Below, piece after piece: positions 3-35,273 of a DNA stretch of 35,310 nucleotides (positions are counted from its first letter, which is position 1; the number at the start of each line of letters is the position of its first letter). The stretch is taken from positions 1 through 35,310 of the IMG/VR virus record IMGVR_UViG_3300048550_000320; one strand, 5' to 3'. Both the position numbers and the translations under genes were made by a program. Origin of the DNA: a virus. Lineage: Duplodnaviria; Caudoviricetes. Below the pieces are notes generated by a model that saw only the letters and a list, made by a program, of their open reading frames with translations, was not told the DNA's origin and did no database searches.

Positions 3-701
3 AAAATAAGTTTACCAAATCCAGAAGAATATGGTTCTTCATCAGCGCCAAAAATAATCACAGTTAAGGTTGCTTCTAAAACGGCAGCTCATCCTTATTC
101 AGGTCAAGGATCTTCAAGCGCATATTACTTTGATGGATTAGAATCACCAGCAATTACATTTTCAGGTGCTGATTCATCTTACAAATATTACTATAGATTT
201 GATCAATCAGATTCTACAAACAGCGGTCACCCATTAAGATTTTATTTAGACGCTGCTAAAAATACAGCTTACACTACAGGTGTAACTACAAACGGAACTC
301 CAGGAAATGCTGGGGCATATACTCAAATAGCAGTTGATGCAAACACACCTAATATTGTTTACTACCAATGTTCAAGTCACTCATTAATGGGTAACTTTGC
401 AAACGTAATATCTAATTATATAAATGGTGATTTAACTGTAGGCTCATTATTTAAAATGCCTGACAATACAGCTGCTAAAATATTAGTTGCAGATGGTACA
501 AGTTATCAAGAATCAGCAGTATCAGGTGATGCAACAATCGCATCTGGCGGAGCATTAACACTAGCTAACTCTGGAGTATCAGCAGCTAGTTATACAAATT
601 CATCAATTACAGTAGATGCAAAAGGAAGAATAACATCAGCATCAAGCGGAACTGCAGGAGCAACAGCGGGTTTTGCCGTTGCAATGGCTATCGCCTTGTA
701 G
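3..701 (+). CDS. C-terminal part of a tail fibre/virion protein (5' truncated by window) with a cupredoxin-like motif
   Basis: Frame is open from nt 3 (KISLPNPEEYG...YRFDQSDSTNSGHPLRF...YYQCSSHSLMG) and continues into the track ORF 387..701. It has a fibre-type repeat (ITVDAKGRITSASSG) and ends in AGFAVAMAIAL. Confidence 0.75.
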   Translation, partial: KISLPNPEEYGSSSAPKIITVKVASKTAAHPYSGQGSSSAYYFDGLESPAITFSGADSSYKYYYRFDQSDSTNSGHPLRFYLDAAKNTAYTTGVTTNGTPGNAGAYTQIAVDANTPNIVYYQCSSHSLMGNFANVISNYINGDLTVGSLFKMPDNTAAKILVADGTSYQESAVSGDATIASGGALTLANSGVSAASYTNSSITVDAKGRITSASSGTAGATAGFAVAMAIAL

Positions 702-716
702 TATAAGGAATAAATT

Positions 717-1055
717 ATGGCACAAGATTTTAAAAGATTCGGAGACCAAGACGTAGGAACATCAGCAGTCACTATTCATACTAGTAATTCTAACGATGCT
801 ATAATTTCTATTCGTCTTGCAAACATAACAACATCAACAATAAATGCAGATGTATTTATAACATCTTCAGTAACAGGTGGTTCTCAAAACCACTACATAA
901 TCAAAAATGCGCCAATCGTTGCGGGTGGATCGCTCGAGCTTATAGATGGTGGAAGTAAATTAGTAATGCAAAGCGGAGATGTGGTAAAGGCACAATCAGA
1001 TACTGCAAGTTCATTGAGTGTTTGGATGTCTACAGTTGATGCAATAAGTTCATAG
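717..1055 (+). CDS. Small all-beta virion protein (putative fibre adaptor), paralogous to 12492..12836
   Basis: AAGGA RBS; beta-rich 112 aa; shares pattern with 12492 ORF (AIISIRLAN/AIIKSILVC; KLVMQSGDVV/PLIMQESETL; SLSVWMS/RLHIVAS). Confidence 0.6.
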   Translation: MAQDFKRFGDQDVGTSAVTIHTSNSNDAIISIRLANITTSTINADVFITSSVTGGSQNHYIIKNAPIVAGGSLELIDGGSKLVMQSGDVVKAQSDTASSLSVWMSTVDAISS

Positions 1056-1063
1056 GAGTAATC

Positions 1064-1507
1064 ATGGCGTACGTAGGAAATGCACCGAAACAAAATTTAA
1101 ACACCATGAACTCTCAACAGTTCAACGGTGATAATTCAGAAACAGATTTTACACTTTCACAGAGTGTAGCCAACACAGCAGAAGTAGAAGTCTATGTTGG
1201 AAACGTTAGACAAGATCCGTTTTCAGCTTACTCAATATCTGGTGGTACAACTTTAGCTTTTACAGCGGCCCCTCCAACAGGAACTGGAAATATCTATGTA
1301 GTGTTCCAAGGTAAATCAGTCGGTAATGTTGAACCAGGAGCAAACAGTATTCAAGCAGGAATGATTTCTGCAATCAATGGTGGTTATAAAAATTTAGCAA
1401 CAGTTTCAGAAACAATTACAGTTCCTGCAACGGACAACATGATGTTATGTGGTCCAGTATCTTTTACAGCAACAGTCACAGTAAACGGGACATTAACGGT
1501 AGTATAA
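1064..1507 (+). CDS. Tail fibre anchor/adaptor protein, cassette 1
   Basis: AGGAG RBS; FNGDNSETDFTL...VYVGNVRQDP..AYSISGGTTLAFTAAP phage fibre-base domain; beta-rich C-terminus GPVSFTATVTVNGTLTVV; paralog of 4781..5236. Confidence 0.65.
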   Translation: MAYVGNAPKQNLNTMNSQQFNGDNSETDFTLSQSVANTAEVEVYVGNVRQDPFSAYSISGGTTLAFTAAPPTGTGNIYVVFQGKSVGNVEPGANSIQAGMISAINGGYKNLATVSETITVPATDNMMLCGPVSFTATVTVNGTLTVV

Positions 1508-1508
1508 T

Positions 1509-2072
1509 ATGGCAACATTATTTGTAGATAAAATAGACCCACAATCAGGAACAAGTTTAACAATAGGTTCTTCAGGAGATACTGTTGCTTTAACTTCAGG
1601 TGTTGTGCAAAGTAATTTAATGAATCCAGCTTTTCATGCAACTTTATCTTCTAATCAAAGTTTAACAAATAACACTGGAACGATAGCTATTTTTAATGCA
1701 GAAACTTTTGATACAGATAATGCTTATGATACTTCTACAGGAAAATTTCAACCACAAGTATCAGGAAAATATTTTATTTATGCAAGTACTTATCTAGAAA
1801 TGGGTGCTAGTTCTAACTTAAATAGAGTTCTCGGTTACATACAAAAAAATGGGACTAACGTTCTTTTTAATTATAATGATGCAAGAGCAAATCCAACTAG
1901 AGCATTTTCATTAAATCCAAGTGGGGTTATTGAACTTAATGGTAGTTCAGATTATGTGCAATCATATGTTCAAGTAATTGCTCAAACAACAGCTAGTGGT
2001 TTATATATAGGTGGGGGTACAGGTGGAGATGCCTCATTTTCATACTTCGGTGCATACAGGATAGGAACATAA
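1509..2072 (+). CDS. Receptor-binding protein with C1q/TNF-like head (position A, cassette 1)
   Basis: gC1q signature PAFHA...FNAETFDTDNAYDTSTGKFQPQVSGKYFIYA...KNG...IELNGSSDYV...YFGAYRI. Confidence 0.75.
   Translation: MATLFVDKIDPQSGTSLTIGSSGDTVALTSGVVQSNLMNPAFHATLSSNQSLTNNTGTIAIFNAETFDTDNAYDTSTGKFQPQVSGKYFIYASTYLEMGASSNLNRVLGYIQKNGTNVLFNYNDARANPTRAFSLNPSGVIELNGSSDYVQSYVQVIAQTTASGLYIGGGTGGDASFSYFGAYRIGT
2046..2067 (+). repeat. 22-nt direct repeat TTCGGTGCATACAGGATAGGAA (2046-2067, 3141-3162; degenerate copy 2599-2620) at C1q gene 3' ends
   Basis: Direct sequence comparison. Confidence 0.9.
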
Positions 2073-2076
2073 TATT

Positions 2077-2625
2077 ATGGGAACAATTAAAACAACAAAT
2101 ATAGAACCAATCGCGGACAACGGCACAGTAACCCTGGGTAGTTCTGGGGATCAATTTACTTTGGCTACAGGTGCAAAGTCTAGTTTTCTATATCCAGCTT
2201 TTGAAGCATATCTTTCATCAAGCCAAACTGTTACTGATGATGTTAATACTAAAATTCAAATAAACACTGAAGTTTTTGATACAGACAACTGTTATGACAA
2301 TTCAACTAACTACAGGTTTACTCCAACAGTTGCTGGAAAATATTTTGTTTATGGCGGAGTAAGAGCAAGTAATACTGCAGCCTCTAAAATAAGGGACGTT
2401 ACTTTGCGTATTTATAAAAATGGAAGTTCTTATAGAATGTCTGATTGGAGATTTGCAGATAATGATATACAGAGAGCAGGCTTATCTGTTAATGCAATAA
2501 TAGATTTTAATGGTTCATCAGATTATGTCGAATTATTTTTAAATATAAATGATTTAGGCGGAACATCATCAGCAAATTCAGATGAAAAAGCGACATTTTT
2601 TGGTGCATACAGGTTAGGATCATAA
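2077..2625 (+). CDS. Receptor-binding protein with C1q/TNF-like head (position B, cassette 1)
   Basis: PAFEA...EVFDTDNCYDNSTNYRFTPTVAGKYFVY...YKNGS...FNGSSDYVEL...FFGAYRL. Confidence 0.75.
   Translation: MGTIKTTNIEPIADNGTVTLGSSGDQFTLATGAKSSFLYPAFEAYLSSSQTVTDDVNTKIQINTEVFDTDNCYDNSTNYRFTPTVAGKYFVYGGVRASNTAASKIRDVTLRIYKNGSSYRMSDWRFADNDIQRAGLSVNAIIDFNGSSDYVELFLNINDLGGTSSANSDEKATFFGAYRLGS
2191..2207 (+). repeat. 17-nt direct repeat TATCCAGCTTTTGAAGC (copies 2191-2207, 2727-2743; 11-nt core at 1624-1634) at plug/C1q-head junctions
   Basis: Direct sequence comparison. Confidence 0.9.
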
Positions 2626-2627
2626 TC

Positions 2628-3167
2628 ATGGCATCAATTATAAAAGCAAATCAACTACAGGACTTTGGCGGTAACAGCATTATCACATCTGATGGTGCGG
2701 GTAATCTTACTACGCAGAAGATTAACTATCCAGCTTTTGAAGCTACACTTTCTGCTAATCAAACTGTAAGTGATTCTGCTGATGTCAAAGTTCAATTTAA
2801 CACAGAAACTTTTGATACAGATAATTGTTATGATAATTCTACTAATTATAGATTTACTCCAACAACTGCTGGTAAATATTATGTTTATGCAAGATTACAA
2901 TGTGATTCAAATGCAGCCAATAATCTTCAACAAGGTTTTGCTAAAATATATAAGAATGGTAGTAGAGTTGCTCAAACACAAATGAATATGAATGGTAATT
3001 TTCCAGAAAACATTGGAGTTAATGTTTTTAATATAATCGATATGAATGGTTCTAGTGATTATTTAGAAATATATGTAAATATTGATGATACATCTGGAGA
3101 TGGTGCAGTTAGAGGAACTTCAAGTTTTGCTTGGACTTCTTTCGGTGCATACAGGATAGGAAGTTAA
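2628..3167 (+). CDS. Receptor-binding protein with C1q/TNF-like head (position C, cassette 1)
   Basis: PAFEA...FNTETFDTDNCYDNSTNYRFTPTTAGKYYVY...YKNGS...MNGSSDYLEI...SFGAYRI. Confidence 0.75.
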   Translation: MASIIKANQLQDFGGNSIITSDGAGNLTTQKINYPAFEATLSANQTVSDSADVKVQFNTETFDTDNCYDNSTNYRFTPTTAGKYYVYARLQCDSNAANNLQQGFAKIYKNGSRVAQTQMNMNGNFPENIGVNVFNIIDMNGSSDYLEIYVNIDDTSGDGAVRGTSSFAWTSFGAYRIGS

Positions 3168-3169
3168 TT

Positions 3170-4186
3170 ATGGCATTAAGTAAAATAGATTCAGCAAACA
3201 TGATCGAGGATGTGCCTCAATCGAAAATTGATAATAATATTAACTTCAGAAATCTGATAATTAATGGAGATCAATCTATTGCACAAAGAGGAACTTCACA
3301 AGCTAGTATTACTGCCGCTGGATATTATACTATTGATAGATGGAGAACTGATGTTGTTACTGCTGGTACTTGGACACAAACACAATCAACAGATGTTCCA
3401 ACTGCTCAAGGTTTTCAAAAATCAACTAAATTAGATTGTACTACTGCAGATGGTTCTTTAGCTGCTGGAGATAGAGTATTTTATGGTCAAAGAATAGAAG
3501 ATCAAAATTGTACTTATTTAAAAAAAGGAACTTCATCTGCTGAAAGCACAACAGTTTCATTCTGGGTTAAATCAAATAAAACAGGAACTTATATTTGTGA
3601 ACTTTTTGATAGCCACAATTCAAGGTCAATTTCAAAATCTTATACAATCAATTCAGCTAATACTTGGGAAAAGAAAACAATTACTTTTGCTGGAGATACA
3701 TCAGGTGCATTTGCTAATGATACTGGCATTGGTTTAATGTTGCAATTTTGGTTAGCTGCTGGAAGTACCTATACATCTGGTTCTTTACAAACTTCTTGGG
3801 ATGCAAACACATCTGCAAACAGAGCAGTAGGTCAAGTTAATCTTGCAGATAGCACATCAAACGAATGGTATGTTACAGGAGTTCAGCTTGAGGCAGGCTC
3901 GGTAGCCAGCGACTTTGAATTTTTACCTGTTGATGTGAATTTAGGAAGATGTCAGAGGTATTTTACTAAACTTCATGGAACTATTTATGGTGGTTATTAT
4001 ACTTCTACTACTTCATTTACTGGTGGTATTTTACCAGTTGAGATGAGAACTAATCCAACAGCATCATACGATGGCGTAAGAACAACAACTGGCTTAAATG
4101 CTTATCTTACAAAAACAAATGCTCAATATATTATGACACACTTACAAGGTTTTGTTACTGGGTTTACATTAAATGCGGAGTTATAA
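3170..4186 (+). CDS. Tail fibre/spike protein with carbohydrate-binding-like domain (position D, cassette 1)
   Basis: Start reassigned to ATG 3170 (MALSKID), just after the upstream stop. NFRNLIINGD..IAQRGT...DRW...SFWVKS...TGVQLEAG..ASDFE...RCQRY is a marine phage tail-fibre pattern; close paralog of 7616..8719. Confidence 0.7.
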   Translation: MALSKIDSANMIEDVPQSKIDNNINFRNLIINGDQSIAQRGTSQASITAAGYYTIDRWRTDVVTAGTWTQTQSTDVPTAQGFQKSTKLDCTTADGSLAAGDRVFYGQRIEDQNCTYLKKGTSSAESTTVSFWVKSNKTGTYICELFDSHNSRSISKSYTINSANTWEKKTITFAGDTSGAFANDTGIGLMLQFWLAAGSTYTSGSLQTSWDANTSANRAVGQVNLADSTSNEWYVTGVQLEAGSVASDFEFLPVDVNLGRCQRYFTKLHGTIYGGYYTSTTSFTGGILPVEMRTNPTASYDGVRTTTGLNAYLTKTNAQYIMTHLQGFVTGFTLNAEL

Positions 4187-4198
4187 TTATGATTAATA
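4173..4198 (+). repeat. 26-nt direct repeat ATGCGGAGTTATAATTATGATTAATA (4173-4198, 8706-8731) spanning D-gene stop and chaperone start
   Basis: Direct sequence comparison. Confidence 0.9.
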
Positions 4199-4389
4199 AA
4201 AAAAATATAAATTCAGTAACTTTAATGTATGACACAATATTAGAACCTGGAAAGAAACATTCATATAAAGTTATTTTTAATACAGACAAAATTTGTTTTG
4301 TACCACTAGACGAAGCAAACACAGATTACCAAGCAATACAGGAGTGGATTTCAGAAGGAAACACAGTTATTGATAACCCACCAGAATAA
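4189..4389 (+). CDS. Small tail fibre assembly chaperone-like protein
   Basis: Directly follows D gene; VPLDEANTDYQAIQEW motif; paralog of 8722..8901. Confidence 0.6.
   Translation: MINKKNINSVTLMYDTILEPGKKHSYKVIFNTDKICFVPLDEANTDYQAIQEWISEGNTVIDNPPE
4299..4337 (+). repeat. 39-nt identical repeat TGTACCACTAGACGAAGCAAACACAGATTACCAAGCAAT (4299-4337, 8811-8849)
   Basis: Direct sequence comparison. Confidence 0.95.
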
Positions 4390-4417
4390 TATATAAGTAT
4401 AACAAAGGAGAAAAACT

Positions 4418-4768
4418 ATGGCATCACTATCAAGCAAAATTAAACAGTACGCATCAGACAATGGTGTAGCTTCTGTTGACTTTATGGCTGACGTTTTGCT
4501 TCAGGACGACTCAAACGGTCAGGGACCCTACATCAAGGAATGGAATATCTCAAATGTAGCGAAACCTACTGATGAGCAACTGAACGCTGTAGATTCTGCT
4601 GCAGATCTCGAAGAGAGACAAAATGCAGTAAGAGCTACAAGAAGAAACGCATACGGTGATCTTGGTTCACAGTTAGACATGCAGTACCACGACAATGTTG
4701 ATGGTACAACTACATGGAAAGACCATGTGGCTGCTGTTAAGACTGCAAACCCGATCCCAACTGAATAA
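4418..4768 (+). CDS. XkdW-like tail fibre chaperone
   Basis: Strong AAGGAG RBS; LLQDDSNGQGPYIKEWN...KPTDEQL resembles XkdW; C-terminal RRNAY..LGSQLDMQYHD...WKDHVAAVK. Confidence 0.55.
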   Translation: MASLSSKIKQYASDNGVASVDFMADVLLQDDSNGQGPYIKEWNISNVAKPTDEQLNAVDSAADLEERQNAVRATRRNAYGDLGSQLDMQYHDNVDGTTTWKDHVAAVKTANPIPTE

Positions 4769-4780
4769 GGAGAAAACAAA

Positions 4781-5236
4781 TTGGCTTACGTTGGAAAAGC
4801 TCCTCAAACAGGAGCGTATCAAATACTGGATGACATCGCATCGTCATTCACCGGATCAACACCAGGACCGTTTAACTTAACGGTGAACGGCACAGCTGTG
4901 TCTCCTGGAAACGAAGCTAATTGTATAATATCTATTTCAGGTGTAGTGCAAGATCCAGCAGCCTTTACAATAACAGGTTCACAGATTTCTTTTAGTTCAA
5001 ACCCAGCATCATCAGATACTTTTTTCGGAACAGTATTAGGTGATGTGTTTGATATTGGAACTCCAACAGATTCAACAGTGACCGCAGGAAGTTTAGCATC
5101 AACATTTTTTATGAAAAACAGTCAAACGTTTACAAGTATATCAATGGCAGGTTCAAACAACGGAGCACTCGTTGGACCCGTTACAGTTAGTGGTACAGTG
5201 ACTATACCATCAGGGAGTACATTCGTAATTTTATAA
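4781..5236 (+). CDS. Tail fibre anchor/adaptor protein, cassette 2 (TTG start)
   Basis: AAGGAG RBS before TTG; MAYVGKAP matches MAYVGNAP of 1064; ISGVVQDPAAFTITGSQISFSSNP; C-terminus GPVTVSGTVTIPSGSTFVIL. Confidence 0.65.
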   Translation: MAYVGKAPQTGAYQILDDIASSFTGSTPGPFNLTVNGTAVSPGNEANCIISISGVVQDPAAFTITGSQISFSSNPASSDTFFGTVLGDVFDIGTPTDSTVTAGSLASTFFMKNSQTFTSISMAGSNNGALVGPVTVSGTVTIPSGSTFVIL

Positions 5237-5781
5237 TGAGTAAGTTAGAGACAAATACAATTGATACAATATCAGGAAGTAATACACTTACTTTAGGTTC
5301 AAGTAATTTATCTACTATTAATATGGCAAGTGGTGTTAGTCCTGGAACAGGGATGGGTAAAGTTTTACAAGTTGTTCAAGGTGTAAAAACTGCAGCTGTT
5401 ACTACAAGTTCAACTTCTTTTTCTGCAACAGGAGTTAAAGCAACAATAACTCCATCATCAACAAGTTCTAAAATTTTAGTTTTAGTCACTCTAAATGGAG
5501 TAGCTGGAAGTGGTAGCACTACTAGAAATGCAAGTTTTAAACTATATAAAGGTGGTTCATTTTTAGATTGGATAGTAGATGGTTATGGATATGGAACTGG
5601 TATTCTTATAGGAAATGTATCTTATAATAAACTTGTTTCTCCATCAACTACATCTGCAACAGAATTTGAGGTATTTTTTGCTGAACAAGGTGGCTCTGGT
5701 AGTCCAATCTACATTAATAATTATCCTGCTTCAGATAACACATCAACCTCAACAATCACACTAATGGAGATATCAGCATAA
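5236..5781 (+). CDS. Receptor-binding protein, probable jelly-roll head (position A, cassette 2)
   Basis: TAATG coupling; N-terminus like 1509; head GKVLQVVQ...ITPSSTSSKILV...STITLMEI. Confidence 0.6.
   Translation: MSKLETNTIDTISGSNTLTLGSSNLSTINMASGVSPGTGMGKVLQVVQGVKTAAVTTSSTSFSATGVKATITPSSTSSKILVLVTLNGVAGSGSTTRNASFKLYKGGSFLDWIVDGYGYGTGILIGNVSYNKLVSPSTTSATEFEVFFAEQGGSGSPIYINNYPASDNTSTSTITLMEISA
5342..5360 (+). repeat. 19-nt direct repeat CTGGAACAGGGATGGGTAA (5342-5360, 6874-6892) encoding the GTGMG linker at plug/head junctions
   Basis: Direct sequence comparison. Confidence 0.9.
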
Positions 5782-6038
5782 TGATTATAGAAACAATTTT
5801 AAAAATAAATCCTAGTGCAGAAGTAACTGTTACAGGTAAAGATATAAATACTTGTGAAATAACTTGGTTAAATAGCACAACACCTATTTCTAAAGCAGAT
5901 ATTGAAGCAATGATGCCTATTGTTGAACAAGAAATTAAAGACGCAGAAACTAAAAAAATTAACGACAAAGCAACTGCTAAATCTAAATTAAAAGCATTAG
6001 GATTAACTGATGCTGAAGTGGAAGCATTACAAGGATAA
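5781..6038 (+). CDS. Chaperone-like partner of 5236 gene
   Basis: TAATG coupling; MIIETILKINP...W..TTPISK...KLKALGLTDAE; paralog of 7356..7616. Confidence 0.55.
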   Translation: MIIETILKINPSAEVTVTGKDINTCEITWLNSTTPISKADIEAMMPIVEQEIKDAETKKINDKATAKSKLKALGLTDAEVEALQG

Positions 6039-6040
6039 TT

Positions 6041-6622
6041 ATGGCAGACGGAACTTTAAAAGTAGGGACAATAACAACGAGCTCTGGATCAGGGACAATT
6101 ACTATTGGTCAATCTGGGGAGACTTTAAATGTAGGTACAGGAGTAGTCTCAAGACTTGGAAAATTTGAATCACAACTACTTCATGTAAGAGATGAAAAAG
6201 CAAGTGGTACTGAAGGTGGTGCTACTTCATCAGGAGACAATACATGTGTTTTAAACACAATTAAAACAAACGAAATTACTGGTGCTAGTTTATCTTCTAA
6301 TCAAATTACTTTACCTTCAGGAACTTATTATATAGATGCATCTGTACCTGGATTTTTTGTAGATAGATTAAGAGGTTTTTTAAGAAATATTACAGACAGT
6401 TCCGATACTATTCTTGGTCAAGCAGGTTATGCAGTAGCAACATCACCTGCTTCTCAAAATGTTTCAAAAGTATGTGGTAGATTTACAATAGCTTCACAAA
6501 AGGTATTTGAGATAAAACTTTATTGCCAAACTGCAAGAGTTACTAATGGTTTCGGTGTTAATACAGGTGATAGTAGAACAAATGTTTATACTGATGTTCA
6601 AATATGGAGAACAGGTGAATGA
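6041..6622 (+). CDS. Receptor-binding protein, probable TNF/C1q-like head (position B, cassette 2)
   Basis: N-terminus like 2077; head HVRDEKASGTEGG...QITLPSGTYYIDAS...VYTDVQIWR. Confidence 0.6.
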   Translation: MADGTLKVGTITTSSGSGTITIGQSGETLNVGTGVVSRLGKFESQLLHVRDEKASGTEGGATSSGDNTCVLNTIKTNEITGASLSSNQITLPSGTYYIDASVPGFFVDRLRGFLRNITDSSDTILGQAGYAVATSPASQNVSKVCGRFTIASQKVFEIKLYCQTARVTNGFGVNTGDSRTNVYTDVQIWRTGE

Positions 6623-6789
6623 AATACGCATTAATAGAAAACAATGTAGTCAAAGTAATATCTTACGAACCAACAGAAGGTTTTGTTGAAGTATCAGACA
6701 ATGTATTTGCTGACATGGTTAAAAAAGAAGATGGAACATTTGATTACACAGATGAATTTAAAGCCGAACACACAGGAGATATTGAGTAA
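6619..6789 (+). CDS. 56-aa tail-fibre-assembly-like protein (not in ORF track)
   Basis: ATGA overlap with upstream stop, TAATG overlap downstream; MKYALIENNVVKVISYEPTEGFVEVSDNVFADMVKKEDGTFDYTDEFKAEHTGDIE. Confidence 0.65.
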   Translation: MKYALIENNVVKVISYEPTEGFVEVSDNVFADMVKKEDGTFDYTDEFKAEHTGDIE

Positions 6790-7352
6790 TGAGTAGCATT
6801 TTAAAAGTAGACCAGCTTAAAGATTCAGGAGGCAATGCAATTATTACTTCTGATGGAAGTGGTAACATTACTACTGGAACAGGGATGGGTAACTATGTTG
6901 TAGAAAAAATTTCTTCTTATATTAATCCAACAAATGTTTCAACGACATCTCAATTAGATTATTTTGATATAGCAGGTGACAATACTATTAATTTTACACC
7001 AACCTCTACAAATGACATCATAATATTATCAGGTGCTAGTGTTATAAGAAATGGTACAACAGAAGCTAATGGTATTGGTTTAGGAATAATGCAAGGTACA
7101 TCTTCATCATTAAGTTCAAGTGATACTGTTGTAATGGCAAATGGAAGATTTGGTAATATGTTTGGCTCATTTTATACTAAAGGAACTATCCAAGCTGATG
7201 TAACTGGTTTAAGTGCAAATACTACTTATTATTTTGAAATGTATGGAATGACTTATACAACAAATTTACATTATTTTAATTATGGTACTACTAATGCTAC
7301 TGACAACGGAAGACATAAATTAATCGGAGTACATTATAAATACACAGGATAA
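6789..7352 (+). CDS. Receptor-binding protein, probable jelly-roll head (position C, cassette 2)
   Basis: N-terminus closely matches 2628 (QLKDSGGNAIITSDGSGNITT vs QLQDFGGNSIITSDGAGNLTT); head with INFTPTSTNDIIIL. Confidence 0.6.
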   Translation: MSSILKVDQLKDSGGNAIITSDGSGNITTGTGMGNYVVEKISSYINPTNVSTTSQLDYFDIAGDNTINFTPTSTNDIIILSGASVIRNGTTEANGIGLGIMQGTSSSLSSSDTVVMANGRFGNMFGSFYTKGTIQADVTGLSANTTYYFEMYGMTYTTNLHYFNYGTTNATDNGRHKLIGVHYKYTG

Positions 7353-7355
7353 CAA

Positions 7356-7616
7356 ATGATTATAGAAACAATATTAAAAATAAATCCAAATGCAAAAGTT
7401 ACTGTTATAGGTGATGACATTGATAACTGCGAAATTGAATGGTTAGAAAATACAACACCAATATCAAAAGAAGATATTGAAGCTATGATACCAGTTGTTG
7501 AACAAGAATTAAAAGACGCTGAACAAACAGCAATAGATAAAAAAGCCTCTGGTAAACAGAAGCTAAAAGATTTAGGATTGGACGACGCAGAAATTAAAGC
7601 GTTGATAGGAGCATAA
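7356..7616 (+). CDS. Chaperone-like partner of 6789 gene
   Basis: Paralog of 5781..6038; first 32 nt are 31/32 identical. Confidence 0.55.
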   Translation: MIIETILKINPNAKVTVIGDDIDNCEIEWLENTTPISKEDIEAMIPVVEQELKDAEQTAIDKKASGKQKLKDLGLDDAEIKALIGA

Positions 7617-8719
7617 TGGCGATAACTAGAATAGGTAACCCAGCAATCGCAGATCAAAGAGGCGTTAATTTTAGGAATATAATAATTAATGGCGGAATGG
7701 ATTTAGCACAAAGAGGAACTTCCTTTACAGGGATTACAAGTGGAAGTAATTATTGTTTAGATAGATTTACAACTGTGCCTGTAACTGCTGGAACTTGGAC
7801 ACAAACACAATCAACTGATGTACCAACTGGTCAAGGCTTTGCAAATTCTGCAAAATTAGATTGCACTACTGCAAATGGTTCTTTAAGTGCTAATAGTTTG
7901 TTGTACTTTCAACAAAGAGTAGAAGGTCAAAATTTACAGTATTTAAAAAAAGGCACATCAAGTGCTGAAAGTGTTACAATGTCATTTTGGGTTAAATCAA
8001 ACAAGACAGGAACTTATATTGTAGAGTTATTTGATGGAGATAATACAAGACAAATATCAAAATCATATACTATCAATTCTGCTAATACTTGGGAAAAGAA
8101 AACTATTACTTATTCAGGTGATACAACAGGAGCATTTAATAATGATAATGCTTTAAGTTTATATTGTTTTTTTTGGTTAGCAGGTGGAACTGATTATACT
8201 TCAGGAACTTTATCAACAACTTGGACAGCAAACACAAATGCAAATAGAGCAGTAGGTCAAGTCAACCTTGCAGATAACACAGCTAACGAATGGTACATTA
8301 CAGGCGTACAATTAGAAGCTAAAGAAGTAGCATCTGATTTTGAGTTCTTGCCACATGATATGAATTTAGAAAGATGTTTAAGATATTACTATCTTGTTGC
8401 TGAAGGAGATCAACAAAGTATGGGAACGGGTCTTTACTATAGCAGTGCTTATCTTTTACAAGCAGCTTCCTATCCCGTTAGAATGAGAGCAACACCATCT
8501 TTACACCAAACGTCAGGTTCAGCATATTATGGACTTTTTAGAAGTGCTGCTGAAGATACTTTTAACGAATTTATTATAAATGTATCAGGTTCATTAAGGT
8601 CAAATGATAAATATTATGAAATATACAATGCCAGTAATGCTAGTGGAACTGCTGGACAAACAGGTTTTTTAAGAACTAGCAATGCAAGTGCTTTTATAGC
8701 ATTTGATGCGGAGTTATAA
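7616..8719 (+). CDS. Tail fibre/spike protein with carbohydrate-binding-like domain (position D, cassette 2)
   Basis: Highly similar to 3170..4186 up to RCLRY, then a divergent and longer tip; both end in AEL. Confidence 0.7.
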   Translation: MAITRIGNPAIADQRGVNFRNIIINGGMDLAQRGTSFTGITSGSNYCLDRFTTVPVTAGTWTQTQSTDVPTGQGFANSAKLDCTTANGSLSANSLLYFQQRVEGQNLQYLKKGTSSAESVTMSFWVKSNKTGTYIVELFDGDNTRQISKSYTINSANTWEKKTITYSGDTTGAFNNDNALSLYCFFWLAGGTDYTSGTLSTTWTANTNANRAVGQVNLADNTANEWYITGVQLEAKEVASDFEFLPHDMNLERCLRYYYLVAEGDQQSMGTGLYYSSAYLLQAASYPVRMRATPSLHQTSGSAYYGLFRSAAEDTFNEFIINVSGSLRSNDKYYEIYNASNASGTAGQTGFLRTSNASAFIAFDAEL

Positions 8720-8721
8720 TT

Positions 8722-8901
8722 ATGATTAATACAGTAACAAAAAACTATAATTTTGAAAACGAATTTTGCAGTTATCAAGTAACTTATGTAAATTCTAATA
8801 AAGTTAAATCTGTACCACTAGACGAAGCAAACACAGATTACCAAGCAATCCAAGAATGGGCCAAGATAGAAGGCAATAACATCACTGACAACGGAGCGTA
8901 G
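8722..8901 (+). CDS. 59-aa tail fibre chaperone-like protein (not in ORF track)
   Basis: MINTVTKNYNFENEFCSYQVTYVNSNKVKSVPLDEANTDYQAIQEWAKIEGNNITDNGA; paralog of 4189..4389. Confidence 0.7.
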   Translation: MINTVTKNYNFENEFCSYQVTYVNSNKVKSVPLDEANTDYQAIQEWAKIEGNNITDNGA

Positions 8902-21771: not shown

Positions 21772-22257
21772 ATGCAGTTGAGTAAGCACTTTACTTTAAA
21801 AGAGATGACTAAAAGTATGACAGCCACACGTAAGGGTATAGACAATACACCAGGGGCTGGTGAAATTAAAAATTTAGGAGACTTATGTTATGAAGTTCTT
21901 GAACCACTACGGGCCCATTTTGACAAGCCAGTTACAATCACCAGCGGATACCGGAGCGAGGCGTTGTGTGAAGCAATCGGCAGCAAAAAGACGTCACAAC
22001 ATGCGAAAGGCCAGGCGGTCGACCTAGAAATATTTTCTGTTCCCAACATTAAGGTAGCCTACTGGCTACAAAATAACGTTGACTTTGATCAATTGATCAT
22101 GGAATTTTTTGATCCCGAAGATCCTGCAGGGGGATGGATACATATTAGTTATCATGAATCTGGTGCAAACAGAAAACAAGTATTGACCTTTGACGGTAAA
22201 AAATATAGTGAAGGCTTACCCGATATGAAATGGGAAGGCGGCAAAGTCGTAGGTTAA
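21772..22257 (+). CDS. Peptidase M15A (Zn peptidase), probable endolysin
   Basis: LSKHFTLKEM, SGYRS, SQHAKGQAVD, DQLI.E and WIHISY motifs; AGGAG RBS. Confidence 0.85.
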   Translation: MQLSKHFTLKEMTKSMTATRKGIDNTPGAGEIKNLGDLCYEVLEPLRAHFDKPVTITSGYRSEALCEAIGSKKTSQHAKGQAVDLEIFSVPNIKVAYWLQNNVDFDQLIMEFFDPEDPAGGWIHISYHESGANRKQVLTFDGKKYSEGLPDMKWEGGKVVG

Positions 22258-22261
22258 TTTT

Positions 22262-22639
22262 ATGAAAAATAGTTTGTTAGTGCATCAGCACTTAATTATT
22301 CGTGCTGAAGCTATCAAACCACCAGTCGATGAAGAACAATTAACAGAGTGGATGAGAGACTTTGTTGAGTTTATAAATATGAAAATATTTATGGGTCCTT
22401 ATGTTAAGTATTGTTCAATGCCTGGTAACAGAGGTATTACTGCTGTTGCAATTATTGAGACTTCACACATAGCTATGCACGTTTGGGATGAGCCATCACC
22501 TGCATTGATGCAGTTTGATGTCTATTCGTGTGCCAACTTTGATGTAGAAAAGATTTGTGAAAAAATTAAAAAAGATTTTAATATACAAAAGATTGAATAT
22601 AAATTCTTGAATCGCGAAACGGGATTACAAGATATTTAA
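22262..22639 (+). CDS. speD: Pyruvoyl-dependent decarboxylase proenzyme, AdoMetDC/SpeD family (possibly Arg/Orn decarboxylase)
   Basis: HQHLII...GITAVAIIETSHIAMHVWDE...QFDVYSC matches the class 1 SpeD fold motifs. Confidence 0.8.
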   Translation: MKNSLLVHQHLIIRAEAIKPPVDEEQLTEWMRDFVEFINMKIFMGPYVKYCSMPGNRGITAVAIIETSHIAMHVWDEPSPALMQFDVYSCANFDVEKICEKIKKDFNIQKIEYKFLNRETGLQDI

Positions 22640-30091: not shown

Positions 30092-31950
30092 GGAGTACTC
30101 AAATTCCTTTGTTTACACCACAAACGGAATGGGTAATGCCTGATGAACTTAAAGATTTAAAAGGTCATAAAGAAATATCAATTGATTTAGAAACAAATGA
30201 TCCATATTTAATGACACTAGGGTCAGGTAATGTCACCGGTAGAGGTCACATTGCGGGCGTTGCAGTGGCTGTAGAGGGTTGGTCCGGATATTTTCCTATT
30301 CAACATGAATCTGGTGGGAACATGGATAGAAAATTAGTTTTATCATGGTTACAAGATGTTTGTAATCAACCAGATACTACCTTTATATTTCATAATGCAA
30401 TGTATGATGTTTGTTGGTTAAGGGCAGCAGGTGTTAATGTTAAAGGTAAAATTGTAGATACAATGATTGCAGCGTCTTTGATAGATGAAAACAGAATGTC
30501 TTATGCATTAAATACATTAGCTAAATTTTATGTAGGTATTGGTAAGGACGAAAGTATTTTACAAGCTGCAGCAAAAGAATATGGACTTGATCCTAAAAAA
30601 GATATGTGGAGATTACCCGCGCTTTTTGTTGGACAGTACGCGGAGCGTGATGCGGAGGCTACACTTAAACTTTGGCAAAGATTAAAAATAGAATTATATA
30701 ATCAAGAACTAATGGATGTCTTTACATTAGAGACAAAACTATTTCCTTGTTTAGTTGATATGAGATTCAAAGGAGTAAGAGTTGATTTAGAGAAAGCAGC
30801 TAAAATTAAAAAAAATCTTATGCAACGTGAAGCTAAAATTGTTAGTAAAATCAAAGAGTTGACAGGAGTTAATGTAGAAATACACGCAGCTCGAAGTATT
30901 GCAAAAGCGTTTGATAATTTAAAACTACCTTATGATAGAACAGAAAAAAGTAAGGAACCAAGTTTTACAAAAAACTTTTTACAAAACCATCCACATGAAC
31001 TACCTAAACTAATTGCAGATGCAAGAGAGATAAACAAAGCTCACACTACATTTATAGATTCAATTACTAAACACGCAGTTGATGGTAGAATACACGCAGA
31101 CATAAATCAAATACGATCAGATGCAGGTGGGACCGTGACTGGTAGATTCTCTATGAGCAATCCAAACTTACAGCAGATTCCAGCGAGGCACCCGGAACTC
31201 GGACCGATGATTAGATCTATATTTATTCCAGAAGAAAAAACTGTTTGGGGATCGTTTGACTACTCACAACAAGAACCTAGAATTTTAGTGCATTATGCAA
31301 AGTTACAAAACTTAATGGGTGTAGATGAAATTGTAGATGCATACAATGCAGGTGACGCAGACTTTCACCAGGTTGTAGCAGACATGGCGGGTATTGAACG
31401 TAAGCAAGCCAAAACAATTAATTTAGGATTAATGTATGGTATGGGTAAAAATAAATTAATGGCAGAACTAGGTTTAATGAAAGAATCTGCTGAAAAATTA
31501 ATTAAACAATATCATACAAAGGCCCCCTTCGTTAAACAACTAATGGATAATGTATCTCGTAAGGCAAATGATCGTGGTAAAATTAGAACATTGGGTGGTA
31601 GAGCCTGTCATTTTGATCTATGGCAACCAACACAGTTTGGTATATTTAAACCATTACCTTTAGAACAGGCTAGAAAAGAGTATGATGAACCATTAAAACG
31701 TGCATTTACTTACAAAGCATTAAACAAATTAATACAAGGTAGTGCTGCAGATATGACAAAAAAATCTATGGTAGCTTTGTATGAAAATGGTATAATACCT
31801 CACATTCAAATTCATGATGAGGTAGATATCTCTGTTGAGTCTGATGCAAAGGCAGAGAAAATTATTGAGATAATGGAATCTGCTGTGGAACTACAGGTTC
31901 CAAACAAAGTCGATTATGAGAAGGGAGAAAACTGGGGTGAAATTAAATAA
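30088..31950 (+). CDS. polA: Family A DNA polymerase with 3'-5' exonuclease
   Basis: Exo IDLET, FHNAMYD, YAERD; TGRFSMSNPNLQQIP; motif A DYSQQEPR; motif B RKQAKTINLGLMYG; motif C IHDEV. Confidence 0.95.
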   Translation: MRSTQIPLFTPQTEWVMPDELKDLKGHKEISIDLETNDPYLMTLGSGNVTGRGHIAGVAVAVEGWSGYFPIQHESGGNMDRKLVLSWLQDVCNQPDTTFIFHNAMYDVCWLRAAGVNVKGKIVDTMIAASLIDENRMSYALNTLAKFYVGIGKDESILQAAAKEYGLDPKKDMWRLPALFVGQYAERDAEATLKLWQRLKIELYNQELMDVFTLETKLFPCLVDMRFKGVRVDLEKAAKIKKNLMQREAKIVSKIKELTGVNVEIHAARSIAKAFDNLKLPYDRTEKSKEPSFTKNFLQNHPHELPKLIADAREINKAHTTFIDSITKHAVDGRIHADINQIRSDAGGTVTGRFSMSNPNLQQIPARHPELGPMIRSIFIPEEKTVWGSFDYSQQEPRILVHYAKLQNLMGVDEIVDAYNAGDADFHQVVADMAGIERKQAKTINLGLMYGMGKNKLMAELGLMKESAEKLIKQYHTKAPFVKQLMDNVSRKANDRGKIRTLGGRACHFDLWQPTQFGIFKPLPLEQARKEYDEPLKRAFTYKALNKLIQGSAADMTKKSMVALYENGIIPHIQIHDEVDISVESDAKAEKIIEIMESAVELQVPNKVDYEKGENWGEIK

Positions 31951-32600
31951 TGGCATACTTAAACGCAAACATACCAACTGTATACGCACAAATAAGAAAA
32001 GAATATTTATATGATCTTAAAAAAGGCCATGGAGAAGTTGAAGAGTGTATTATCTTTGGCATTACTAGTATGGGGGGCCGTGCTATATTATTTCACGCTC
32101 TTATGGGCAACGGTGCAATATTTTATCGCCTACCAATTAGCGCGTTTATTCAAAAGGGATTTGACCCATCCGGAGTGCCCACAAGACGACTTGATGAATT
32201 GGAGCTTTGGAATTGTTTTTCTTACTATCCTACTGTCACTCATTGGTCTATTTTAAGCGCAGCTTCTGGTTATTATTTTGGTAAAGATAAAAAGAAACAC
32301 TACGGTTCTTATTTATTTACTGTTGACTGGGGACATCCAGATGCTAATATTATAGATACCGATCATTCGGAAATACCGCAAGAACATAAATGCGCACACA
32401 TAATTGCATTAGATGATGGCAATTTTGCAGCACAACCAAACAATAGATGTATTTGGGATCTACCTTCCTTTACCGTAAAAGATAACATTCCGGATTGGAA
32501 AGTACAAACTAATGAATGGAACGTAGAAGATTCTGGTAAATGGAGAACTTCCGATACTGATGATTTCTTTTACGAAATTGAGGAGCAAAAAAATGATTAA
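31950..32600 (+). CDS. Conserved hypothetical phage protein
   Basis: TAATG coupling; YLFTVDW...EHKCAH...GNFAAQPNNR pattern; function unknown. Confidence 0.75.
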   Translation: MAYLNANIPTVYAQIRKEYLYDLKKGHGEVEECIIFGITSMGGRAILFHALMGNGAIFYRLPISAFIQKGFDPSGVPTRRLDELELWNCFSYYPTVTHWSILSAASGYYFGKDKKKHYGSYLFTVDWGHPDANIIDTDHSEIPQEHKCAHIIALDDGNFAAQPNNRCIWDLPSFTVKDNIPDWKVQTNEWNVEDSGKWRTSDTDDFFYEIEEQKND

Positions 32601-34628: not shown

Positions 34629-34836
34629 AGTTATATGTGACCATTGTAAAGGCAATGGTTACTTAAGAGAGAGTAATGGTTCTTATACCGAAGTACATCA
34701 ATGTCCTACTTGTAATTCACAAGGCGAAGTAATGGCTGAAATATATGAACAATTACTTAATACTATTCCCGAAGGAGCAACCGGGAAAGAAATTGCTGAA
34801 ATATTAGAAGGCGATAAGAAAGTCACGCTTCAATGA
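34609..34836 (+). CDS. DnaJ-type Zn-finger protein
   Basis: CDHCKGNG...CPTCNSQG (CxxCxGxG-like pair). Confidence 0.65.
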   Translation: MAKQKIKVICDHCKGNGYLRESNGSYTEVHQCPTCNSQGEVMAEIYEQLLNTIPEGATGKEIAEILEGDKKVTLQ

Positions 34837-35273
34837 ATGATGTAGATATTGCCTATATAGCAGGGCTTTTTGATGGTGAGGGAAGTATTAATATAAGACG
34901 TGCATTTGAGAAGAAAAAAAAGCATAAAAATAAACCAGGATATCGAATGTCTAATTCAATGAGAATATCTATGGAGATTACTATGACTGATCGTAGTGTT
35001 TTAATTTGGTTACATGAAGTTTTAGGAGTCGGGACCTTACGACCTAAAAAAGTAAAAGGTAAAAGAACAGATGGCACTCCTTATCTTAAACAATATAAAT
35101 GGAGATGTGTATTTAGAGATGCGTTTAAAGTTTGTTGTCTATTGTTTCCTTATGCTCACACAAAGCTTGGAAAAATTACACAAGTAATTGAACACTACAC
35201 TAGTATTCCTGAAAATGTTGTAAGAGATAATGTAGTAAATTTTGAACATTACAAGATGTGGATTAAACAATGA
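34833..35273 (+). CDS. Single-motif LAGLIDADG homing endonuclease-like protein
   Basis: IAYIAGLFDGEGSI, ITMTD..VL.WL, G.G, YKW, LFPY...K pattern. Confidence 0.8.
   Translation: MNDVDIAYIAGLFDGEGSINIRRAFEKKKKHKNKPGYRMSNSMRISMEITMTDRSVLIWLHEVLGVGTLRPKKVKGKRTDGTPYLKQYKWRCVFRDAFKVCCLLFPYAHTKLGKITQVIEHYTSIPENVVRDNVVNFEHYKMWIKQ

Follow-up and report, generated by a model that had tools for sequence, protein, structure and literature searches.

We analysed the linear virus record IMGVR_UViG_3300048550_000320 of IMG/VR (35.3 kb, 58% complete; this whole stretch is called the window) and, within it, two successive gene cassettes (1064-4389 and 4781-8901) of predicted receptor-binding proteins. The window DNA polymerase is 91% identical to that of 023Pt_psg01 and 53-56% identical to those of HTVC023P and HTVC027P, and the flanking genes are ordered as in HTVC023P-type pelagiphages; by clade polymerase and gene layout the window is an HTVC023P-type phage. 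HTVC023P and HTVC027P are described as podoviruses of SAR11 (10.1101/2019.12.14.876532), and a SAR11 host and podovirus morphology are likely for the window phage by analogy with these relatives. An earlier note on this DNA described each cassette as an anchor gene followed by genes A, B, C and D, with N-terminal plugs that specify an address on a branched fibre and with interchangeable heads behind them. Both blocks, their gene order and the N-termini quoted in that note are present at these coordinates; the observation is confirmed, and its interpretation is partly supported. The genes of the region, numbered by cassette, are as follows.

3-701, plus strand: 3' portion of a tail fibre (PHROG tail fibre, E 4.5e-42), cut by the window edge, with a hydrophobic GFAVAMAIAL-type tail; probably the stalk bearing the adaptor
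717-1055, plus strand: 112-aa adaptor-like protein of no family, directly before the first anchor in relatives
1064-1507, plus strand: anchor 1, with a MAY.G leader, a beta-sandwich (residues ~16-85), a linker and the socket (residues ~105-147)
1509-2072, plus strand: A1, plug and C1q head (Pfam C1q, E 2.6e-7), modelled as a homotrimer capped by the socket
2077-2625, plus strand: B1, plug and C1q/TNF-like head (weak Pfam match)
2628-3167, plus strand: C1, plug and C1q-like head (weak Pfam match)
3170-4186, plus strand: D1, unrelated leader and fibre head (PHROG 4492, E 7e-63; start ATG at 3170)
4189-4389, plus strand: small helper gene of the D head family, accompanying that family in 41 of 42 cases
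4418-4768, plus strand: XkdW-family protein (Pfam XkdW, E 1e-12), after cassette 1
4781-5236, plus strand: anchor 2, TTG start, 29% identical to anchor 1, socket at its end
5236-5781, plus strand: A2, plug and 'GKVLQV' head, homologous to P-SSP7 gp37-39 (38% to gp38, E 3e-21)
5781-6038, plus strand: helper of the A2 head family
6041-6622, plus strand: B2, plug and head (PHROG 24210 tail fibre)
6619-6789, plus strand: helper of the B2 head family; the B2 head/helper pair recurs at slot A2 of loci L113 and L122
6789-7352, plus strand: C2, plug and head (weak HMM match to the A2 head family, E 0.004)
7356-7616, plus strand: helper of C2, 69% identical to the A2 helper
7616-8719, plus strand: D2, leader and D1-family head, 61% identical to D1
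8722-8901, plus strand: helper of D2, 63% identical to the D1 helper

The anchors, D and B2 match PHROG tail-fibre families, and the D1 head family is annotated as carbohydrate-binding in cyanophages. The D head had no sequence match in the PDB, the A2 head retrieved unnamed viral clusters alone in the ESM Atlas, and Pfam, PHROG and PDB sequence searches detected no enzyme family among the window heads. The C2 head probably belongs, in diverged form, to the A2 head family. Three C1q heads had been reported for cassette 1; A1 lies above the Pfam cut-off, and B1 and C1 match weakly, yet are 37-45% identical to A1 or to each other. The suggestion of about eight distinct heads on two scaffolds was right in that there are eight head genes and two anchors; the D1 and D2 heads form one family (61%), so the eight genes are not eight unrelated heads.

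The socket is the last ~45 residues of each anchor. Structure prediction folded the socket alone as a compact short beta-solenoid (pLDDT 92-94 over the last 30 residues), and the full-anchor model was mediocre (pLDDT 67.5). The socket profile matched 1,868 clusters at 50% identity (E<=0.001), and for 142 of the best 150 clusters its position was C-terminal; at a loose threshold (E<=5) it matched 176 GenBank phage records. Its matches include T4-like cyanophages, SS120-1, Melnitz, MEP401 and the end of P-SSP7 gp17 (E 2.8e-9). In the PDB, neither sequence nor fold searches returned a significant match, the only rows being weak beta-helix ones at E of at least 5; Pfam, Foldseek and VIA-align gave no match, and BFVD gave uncharacterised or fibre phage proteins alone (E of at least 0.018). 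The anchor N-domain matches the P-SCSP1u fibre at 582-675 (E 6e-13) and a K1 depolymerase N-domain (E 1e-4), and weakly the folds of T7 gp17 and CBA120 TSP4 (E 0.017-0.03). In four T4-like cyanophages (L319, L322, L326, L327) we observed a conserved 138-aa socket protein with a D-like leader; in three of these phages four candidate plug genes come after it in a set order, and in ACG-2014a there are six.

S74-ended chains of unequal length argue for homotrimers, so we modelled three copies of A1 with one socket. The complex reached an ipSAE of 0.72 (0.72, 0.78 and 0.65 in the runs), and the best of three controls 0.00; the ipSAE mark, reached by 116 of 157 solved complexes and by 2 of 215 mismatched pairs, applies only roughly to such a complex. 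The runs agreed in at least 94% of contacts, with partner pLDDT of at least 87, and the A trimer folded with pLDDT 88-91 and was capped by the socket. In the model there are three socket strands (anchor residues about 131-134, 137-140 and 143-146), and each of them pairs with a separate A copy at that copy's residues 1-7; the contact residues in anchor 1 are 120, 122 and 130-147. The model supports binding of plug and anchor and is no proof of it; the idea of a branched multi-chain fibre put forward in the earlier note is also supported.

Two IMG/VR scans with the anchors provided 152 loci and 180 distinct cassette readings, of which the 131 that reach D were counted and the 49 incomplete ones excluded. 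As parsed, three intact plug genes precede D in 104 of 105 short socket-ended anchors, L006 being counted among the 104 with a frameshifted B; the exception, L101, has a frameshifted third gene that retains its plug. All 26 long anchors are fused directly to a head and have neither socket nor plug genes, with D still present. HMO-2011 has the same twin layout, and HMO-2011-type loci reaching D have three plug genes in 31 of 31 cases (24 by pattern, 7 by eye). The psg01-type relatives, with an anchor of 58 aa that is hardly more than a socket, carry one plug of each of three classes in all 26 cassettes read to the end (of 72 distinct), ordered a-c-b in 24, a-b-c in one and b-a-c in one. Gene order within the set of three can thus permute. 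No complete set with just one or two plug genes was found among 162 read-through cassettes from the three lineages. We regard this as a real and widespread system, probably a branched receptor-binding one, with an undescribed joint.

Several features of these loci deserve mention in their own right. The closest named relative, 023Pt_psg01 (91% polymerase identity), has in place of twin cassettes a module (L153, 22296-26679) made up of one socket protein of 58 aa together with three plug genes that are rich in glycine and ~460 aa long; the module as a whole is exchanged within the clade. Gly_rich_2 heads occur in psg01-type relatives. Within or next to the cassette region, L136 (471 aa, after the D helper), L170 and L224 have a gene whose start is of Rossmann type and may resemble tryptophan halogenases; 2OG-Fe(II) oxygenase-like genes are present in psg01-type loci. 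Frameshift-broken plug genes with an intact plug (L101 2044-2506, L006 14502-15057, and L212) are either assembly errors or inactivated branches.

The plugs follow the slot and the heads do not. In related loci, the nearest neighbour was of the same slot for 407 of 423 plugs and for 138 of 423 heads (chance 0.12). FastTree trees of 96 C1q-family proteins, 16 per slot, were compared by slot-label changes: the plug tree had 8 (null 61.7) and the head tree 58 (null 62.8). Separate trees, proposed in the earlier note, thus agree with its claim of a conserved plug set with freely exchanged heads. A total of 475 proteins fell into ~25 head clusters, and the large ones occupied fused anchors as well as all four slots from A to D. 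Three heads of the same class were detected in 38 of 51 cassette 1 sets (shuffled 37.2) and in 9 of 51 cassette 2 sets (8.7); head classes of A, B and C within a cassette are statistically independent, and the matching of heads within a cassette, suggested from the window, is no rule. Most A, B and C heads are C1q-related (families 0, 1 and 3 join in profile comparison); the same comparison detected no C1q link for families 2, 4, 8, 18, J, 16 and 6, so a common fold for all heads is unsupported.

Correspondence of the N-termini by position is firm for C and D (C1 and C2 N-termini are 69% identical over 29 aa, E 6e-10; D1 and D2 61% over 304 aa) and ambiguous for A versus B. Within the window itself, ABCD reaches an assignment score of 252, against 251 for BACD; across loci the A2 plugs are nearest A1 in 30 of 59 cases and nearest B1 in 29 of 59, and the plug profile scores are 69 for A1 and A2, 63 for B1 and B2, and 59-61 for A1 and B1. 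The motif NFRN.IING, taken for a D plug, belongs to the head family, since other D genes bear other heads after the same leader. Profile comparison showed that the A, B and C plugs are paralogues; they have one N-terminal strand pattern in common, and the D leader and the anchor tail are unrelated to them (profile scores <=26).

Evidence on chain composition comes from the longer fibres. Of 8 long plug-bearing chains that were scanned from L081, L160, L177 and L182, 6 carry an S74 chaperone domain above the Pfam cut-off; S74 domains are described as acting in homotrimers (PMC12143355; PMC4690869), and the S74-ended fibres of 547-725 aa adjoin partners of other length and head. The same head families occur on A/B/C, on D and on fused anchors, which we counted for homotrimers. 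We consider it probable that one socket caps one head homotrimer at its N-terminal end, and that a likely trimeric anchor would carry three branches, A3, B3 and C3, which likely act in host recognition. The last turn of the socket beta-solenoid is predicted to offer three strands, each pairing with one chain of the plug trimer; the anchor trimer would supply three identical sockets, and for this reason three plug genes would follow. The likeliest role of the plug differences is self-only trimerisation, each chain trimerising with its own kind, together with side contacts that would favour one of each per fibre.

Several points weigh against this reading. The counts lack independence, because the loci behind them come from close relatives and in some cases represent overlapping reads of a single contig. 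Three plug genes per socket is not universal: one detected socket is accompanied by four candidate plug genes in HTVC023P, P-SSP7, P-RSM4 and P-SSM4 and by six in ACG-2014a. The cyanophage leaders were called plugs largely by eye and match the pooled plug profile weakly (3.1, 4.2, 5.5 and 9.5 bits in P-SSP7; non-plug genes up to 3.0). The complex model covers three A1 copies and one cassette 1 socket alone, and close paralogues often pass such tests; the trimeric state of the window anchor is assumed by analogy with P-SSP7 gp17. For this phage, the place of the heads in the virion and their receptor roles are predictions. The three socket strands in the model are non-equivalent and would fit three plug classes in one heterotrimer equally well.

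This last point leads to another arrangement, in which one socket caps an A:B:C heterotrimer, comparable to the A, B and C chains of complement C1q, with one strand per plug class and either a mixed head or re-sorting between sockets. It would account, with no added assumptions, both for the three distinct conserved classes and for their number, and it agrees with the C1q relationship of most heads, with the dissimilarity of plugs within a cassette (no more than 8 of 16 residues shared in any of 108 sets) and with a beta-sandwich heterotrimer described on a mycobacteriophage baseplate (PMC13252515). However, the head classes of A, B and C do not co-vary, S74-ended fibres stand beside partners of different length and head, a head moved from A to B at 98.6% identity, and three A copies fold and are capped in the model. 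We regard the heterotrimer as unlikely and retain it on account of the unequal strands, which suit it too. The phi92 and phiKZ 'heterotrimers' were considered as parallels and rejected as irrelevant, as they concern baseplate wedges.

The phages with four to six candidate plug genes per socket suggest instead that any trimer might fill the three identical sockets at random, the plug classes merely preventing mis-trimerisation or recombination between tandem paralogues and the number three being historical or economical; the modelled socket, moreover, has no means of choosing. We give this only a slight chance, and the lack of complete sets with one or two plug genes among the read-through cassettes speaks against it.

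The remaining alternative is close to the original proposal that each plug is a distinct scaffold address: A, B, C and D would occupy separate sites; one class might sit on the socket, for instance, with the others docked one after another on its plug, a scheme known from multi-step branched tailspikes. Class-specific invariant residues lie outside the modelled socket contact, and A is the sole class modelled on the socket, as this arrangement would have it. We nevertheless find it quite improbable. The A, B and C plugs are paralogous with one strand pattern, and the model pairs the first 13 plug residues with the C-terminal socket of one anchor chain. Plug order permutes, four to six candidate plug genes can accompany one detected socket, and plugs are swapped between cassettes in 4 of 111 sets (A1-B2-C2 in L007, A1-B1-B2 in L023 and L146, and A2-C2-C1 in L145). 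B2 and C2 plugs thus sit behind socket 1 in L007, and sets exist without a C-type plug (L023, L146) or without a B-type plug (L145). Since the sockets of one anchor are identical, they cannot give addresses, and the plugs are probably not scaffold addresses.

We detected 34 head pairs at least 70% identical that occupy different slots. Over 142 aa, the window A1 head and the L046 B1 head share 98.6% identity, and DNA identity between the two genes rises from 34/60 and 47/60 to 58-60/60 just behind the plug. Near-identical heads in different slots imply that recombination just behind the plug swaps the head together with its helper gene. Small genes follow the head in 41 of 42, 49 of 60 and 35 of 50 members of three head families, versus 1 of 258 C1q heads; these genes track the head family, not the slot, and by analogy may be fibre-tip chaperones, a small downstream gene tied to the tip type being found here as in tail fibres with a cognate chaperone of the Tfa/XkdW type. 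Among the helper-type genes, a Pfam XkdW match was found for 4418-4768 only. The XkdW gene is present after 25 of 25 type-1, 23 of 26 fused and 1 of 51 type-2 cassettes and is probably a shared helper of the C1q heads. Most HMO-2011-type loci (L239-L318) have a fixed pair of ~157-aa and ~123-aa genes after the third cassette 1 plug gene, which are probably shared helpers of that head family. No alignment was obtained between P-SSP7 gp40 and the window helper at 5781-6038.

With regard to the larger assembly, D would dock elsewhere than A, B and C, probably on the N-terminal beta-sandwich of the anchor, as D is present with socket-less anchors. Of 105 type-1 or fused anchors, 99 are preceded by a fibre with a hydrophobic GFAVAMAIAL-type tail and, directly before the first anchor, by a 112-aa gene; this adaptor-like gene is also found in HMO-2011, Lederberg, psg01 and Melnitz. 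Loci with two anchors combine type 1 with type 2 in 22 cases and fused with type 2 in 24. This gene order suggests a path from the stalk (3-701) through the adaptor (717-1055) to the two anchors, which would probably be attached through the adaptor to the upstream fibre, and a small tree with up to eight tips may result.

Among the closest known designs that we found is that of KP32 and K11, podophages of Klebsiella, for which an anchor, a T4gp10-like branching domain and an N-terminal conserved peptide are described (PMC13579863). There, a receptor-binding protein with a gene of its own attaches to the branching domain through an N-terminal peptide of ~35 aa, behind which heads are exchanged; the slot-specific ~30-aa leaders of the present system are analogous to this peptide. 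The receiver here is not T4gp10-like: the A plug was modelled on a C-terminal ~45-aa beta-solenoid socket with no Pfam or PDB match. One socket chain is predicted to bind one trimer, giving three branches per anchor, the heads are C1q-like and other non-depolymerase domains, and marine podo- and myoviruses carry the system.

In P-SSP7, genes 37-39 behind the fibre have been described as three paralogues that form a cassette, gp37 and gp38 as virion proteins (PMC5520035, citing Lindell 2007), and both carry resistance-breaking mutations at residues 126-166, their location in the virion and their structure being reported as unknown (PMC5520035). The fibre gp17 is described as a trimer with an unresolved distal part (10.64898/2026.08.19.745834), and we found that gp17 ends in the socket. 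P-SSP7 gp38 is 38% identical to window A2, and the mutated positions 126-166 fall in the head. P-SSP7 and the window thus correspond in a socket-ended fibre, trimeric in P-SSP7, followed by paralogues with an A2-type head, which in P-SSP7 are virion-associated with host-range mutations in the heads. The P-SSP7 leaders are diverged, however, and a fourth paralogue, gp41, is present; the accessible portions of PMC5520035 describe no socket, plug or branching. Pelagiphage metaviromic islands also carry C1q, carbohydrate-binding and XkdW genes beside tail fibres, flagged earlier as variable host-recognition genes, and no docking architecture is described in the parts of that paper available (PMC3909814). 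HMO-2011 (gp41-gp35 and gp33-gp28, GU557055) has the adaptor, two anchors each with a socket, three plug genes, D and helpers; it differs in phage group, in its host, SAR116, and in its heads, and these genes are annotated as putative tail fibres only.

A single chain joins a trimer end in the T2/S16 gp37-gp38 tip, in the T4 gp35 hinge and in VgrG-PAAR or T4 gp5-gp5.4. Compared with these caps, the monomeric unit in our model would lie on the scaffold side and the trimer would be the adhesin, so that the polarity is reversed or the role differs. No gp38 family match was detected for the window genes in Pfam and PHROG, and no PAAR match for the socket in Pfam, Foldseek and VIA-align.

The socket, the three-way branching and the twin layout were not found described in full-text searches of one open-licence library, subscription papers and supplements being outside this scope. 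Beyond the window, we tentatively propose, as a possibility short of an even chance, that abundant marine phages (pelagiphages, SAR116 phages, cyanophages and OM43 phages) may build dendrimer-like adhesin trees with a three-way joint, in which a monomeric beta-solenoid socket would cap any plug-started trimer, the plug code would enforce one A, one B and one C per tip, and proteins with a plug start and a socket end would add branching levels. Three socket-ended proteins (P0184, P0197 and P0250) start with a plug-like leader resembling, by eye, the starts of P-SSP7 gp37 and MEP401 gp53; such proteins could permit recursive branching.

If true, the proposal would describe a general, programmable connector displaying several unrelated receptor-binding trimers on one fibre. 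The way in which the most abundant phages of the ocean find their hosts among SAR11, SAR116 and Prochlorococcus is still debated as an open question, and reshuffling of heads on fibre branches likely lets these phages vary host recognition. So far no assembly logic has been available for their variable islands, which hold small genes that are C1q-like or hypothetical; the model would give the P-SSP7 host-range proteins a place in the virion and would let receptor-binding repertoires be read slot by slot from genomes. It is cheaply testable in the culturable phages P-SSP7, HMO-2011 and HTVC023P.

Elsewhere in the window, an S-adenosylmethionine decarboxylase gene (22262-22639; Pfam E 8e-17), possibly a polyamine-related auxiliary gene, adjoins a peptidase M15 endolysin (21772-22257). 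The region 31950-32600, right after the DNA polymerase, has a PHROG 'ferredoxin' match (E 1e-74) and no Pfam match, and a LAGLIDADG endonuclease (34833-35273; Pfam E 3e-6) is present at the window end.

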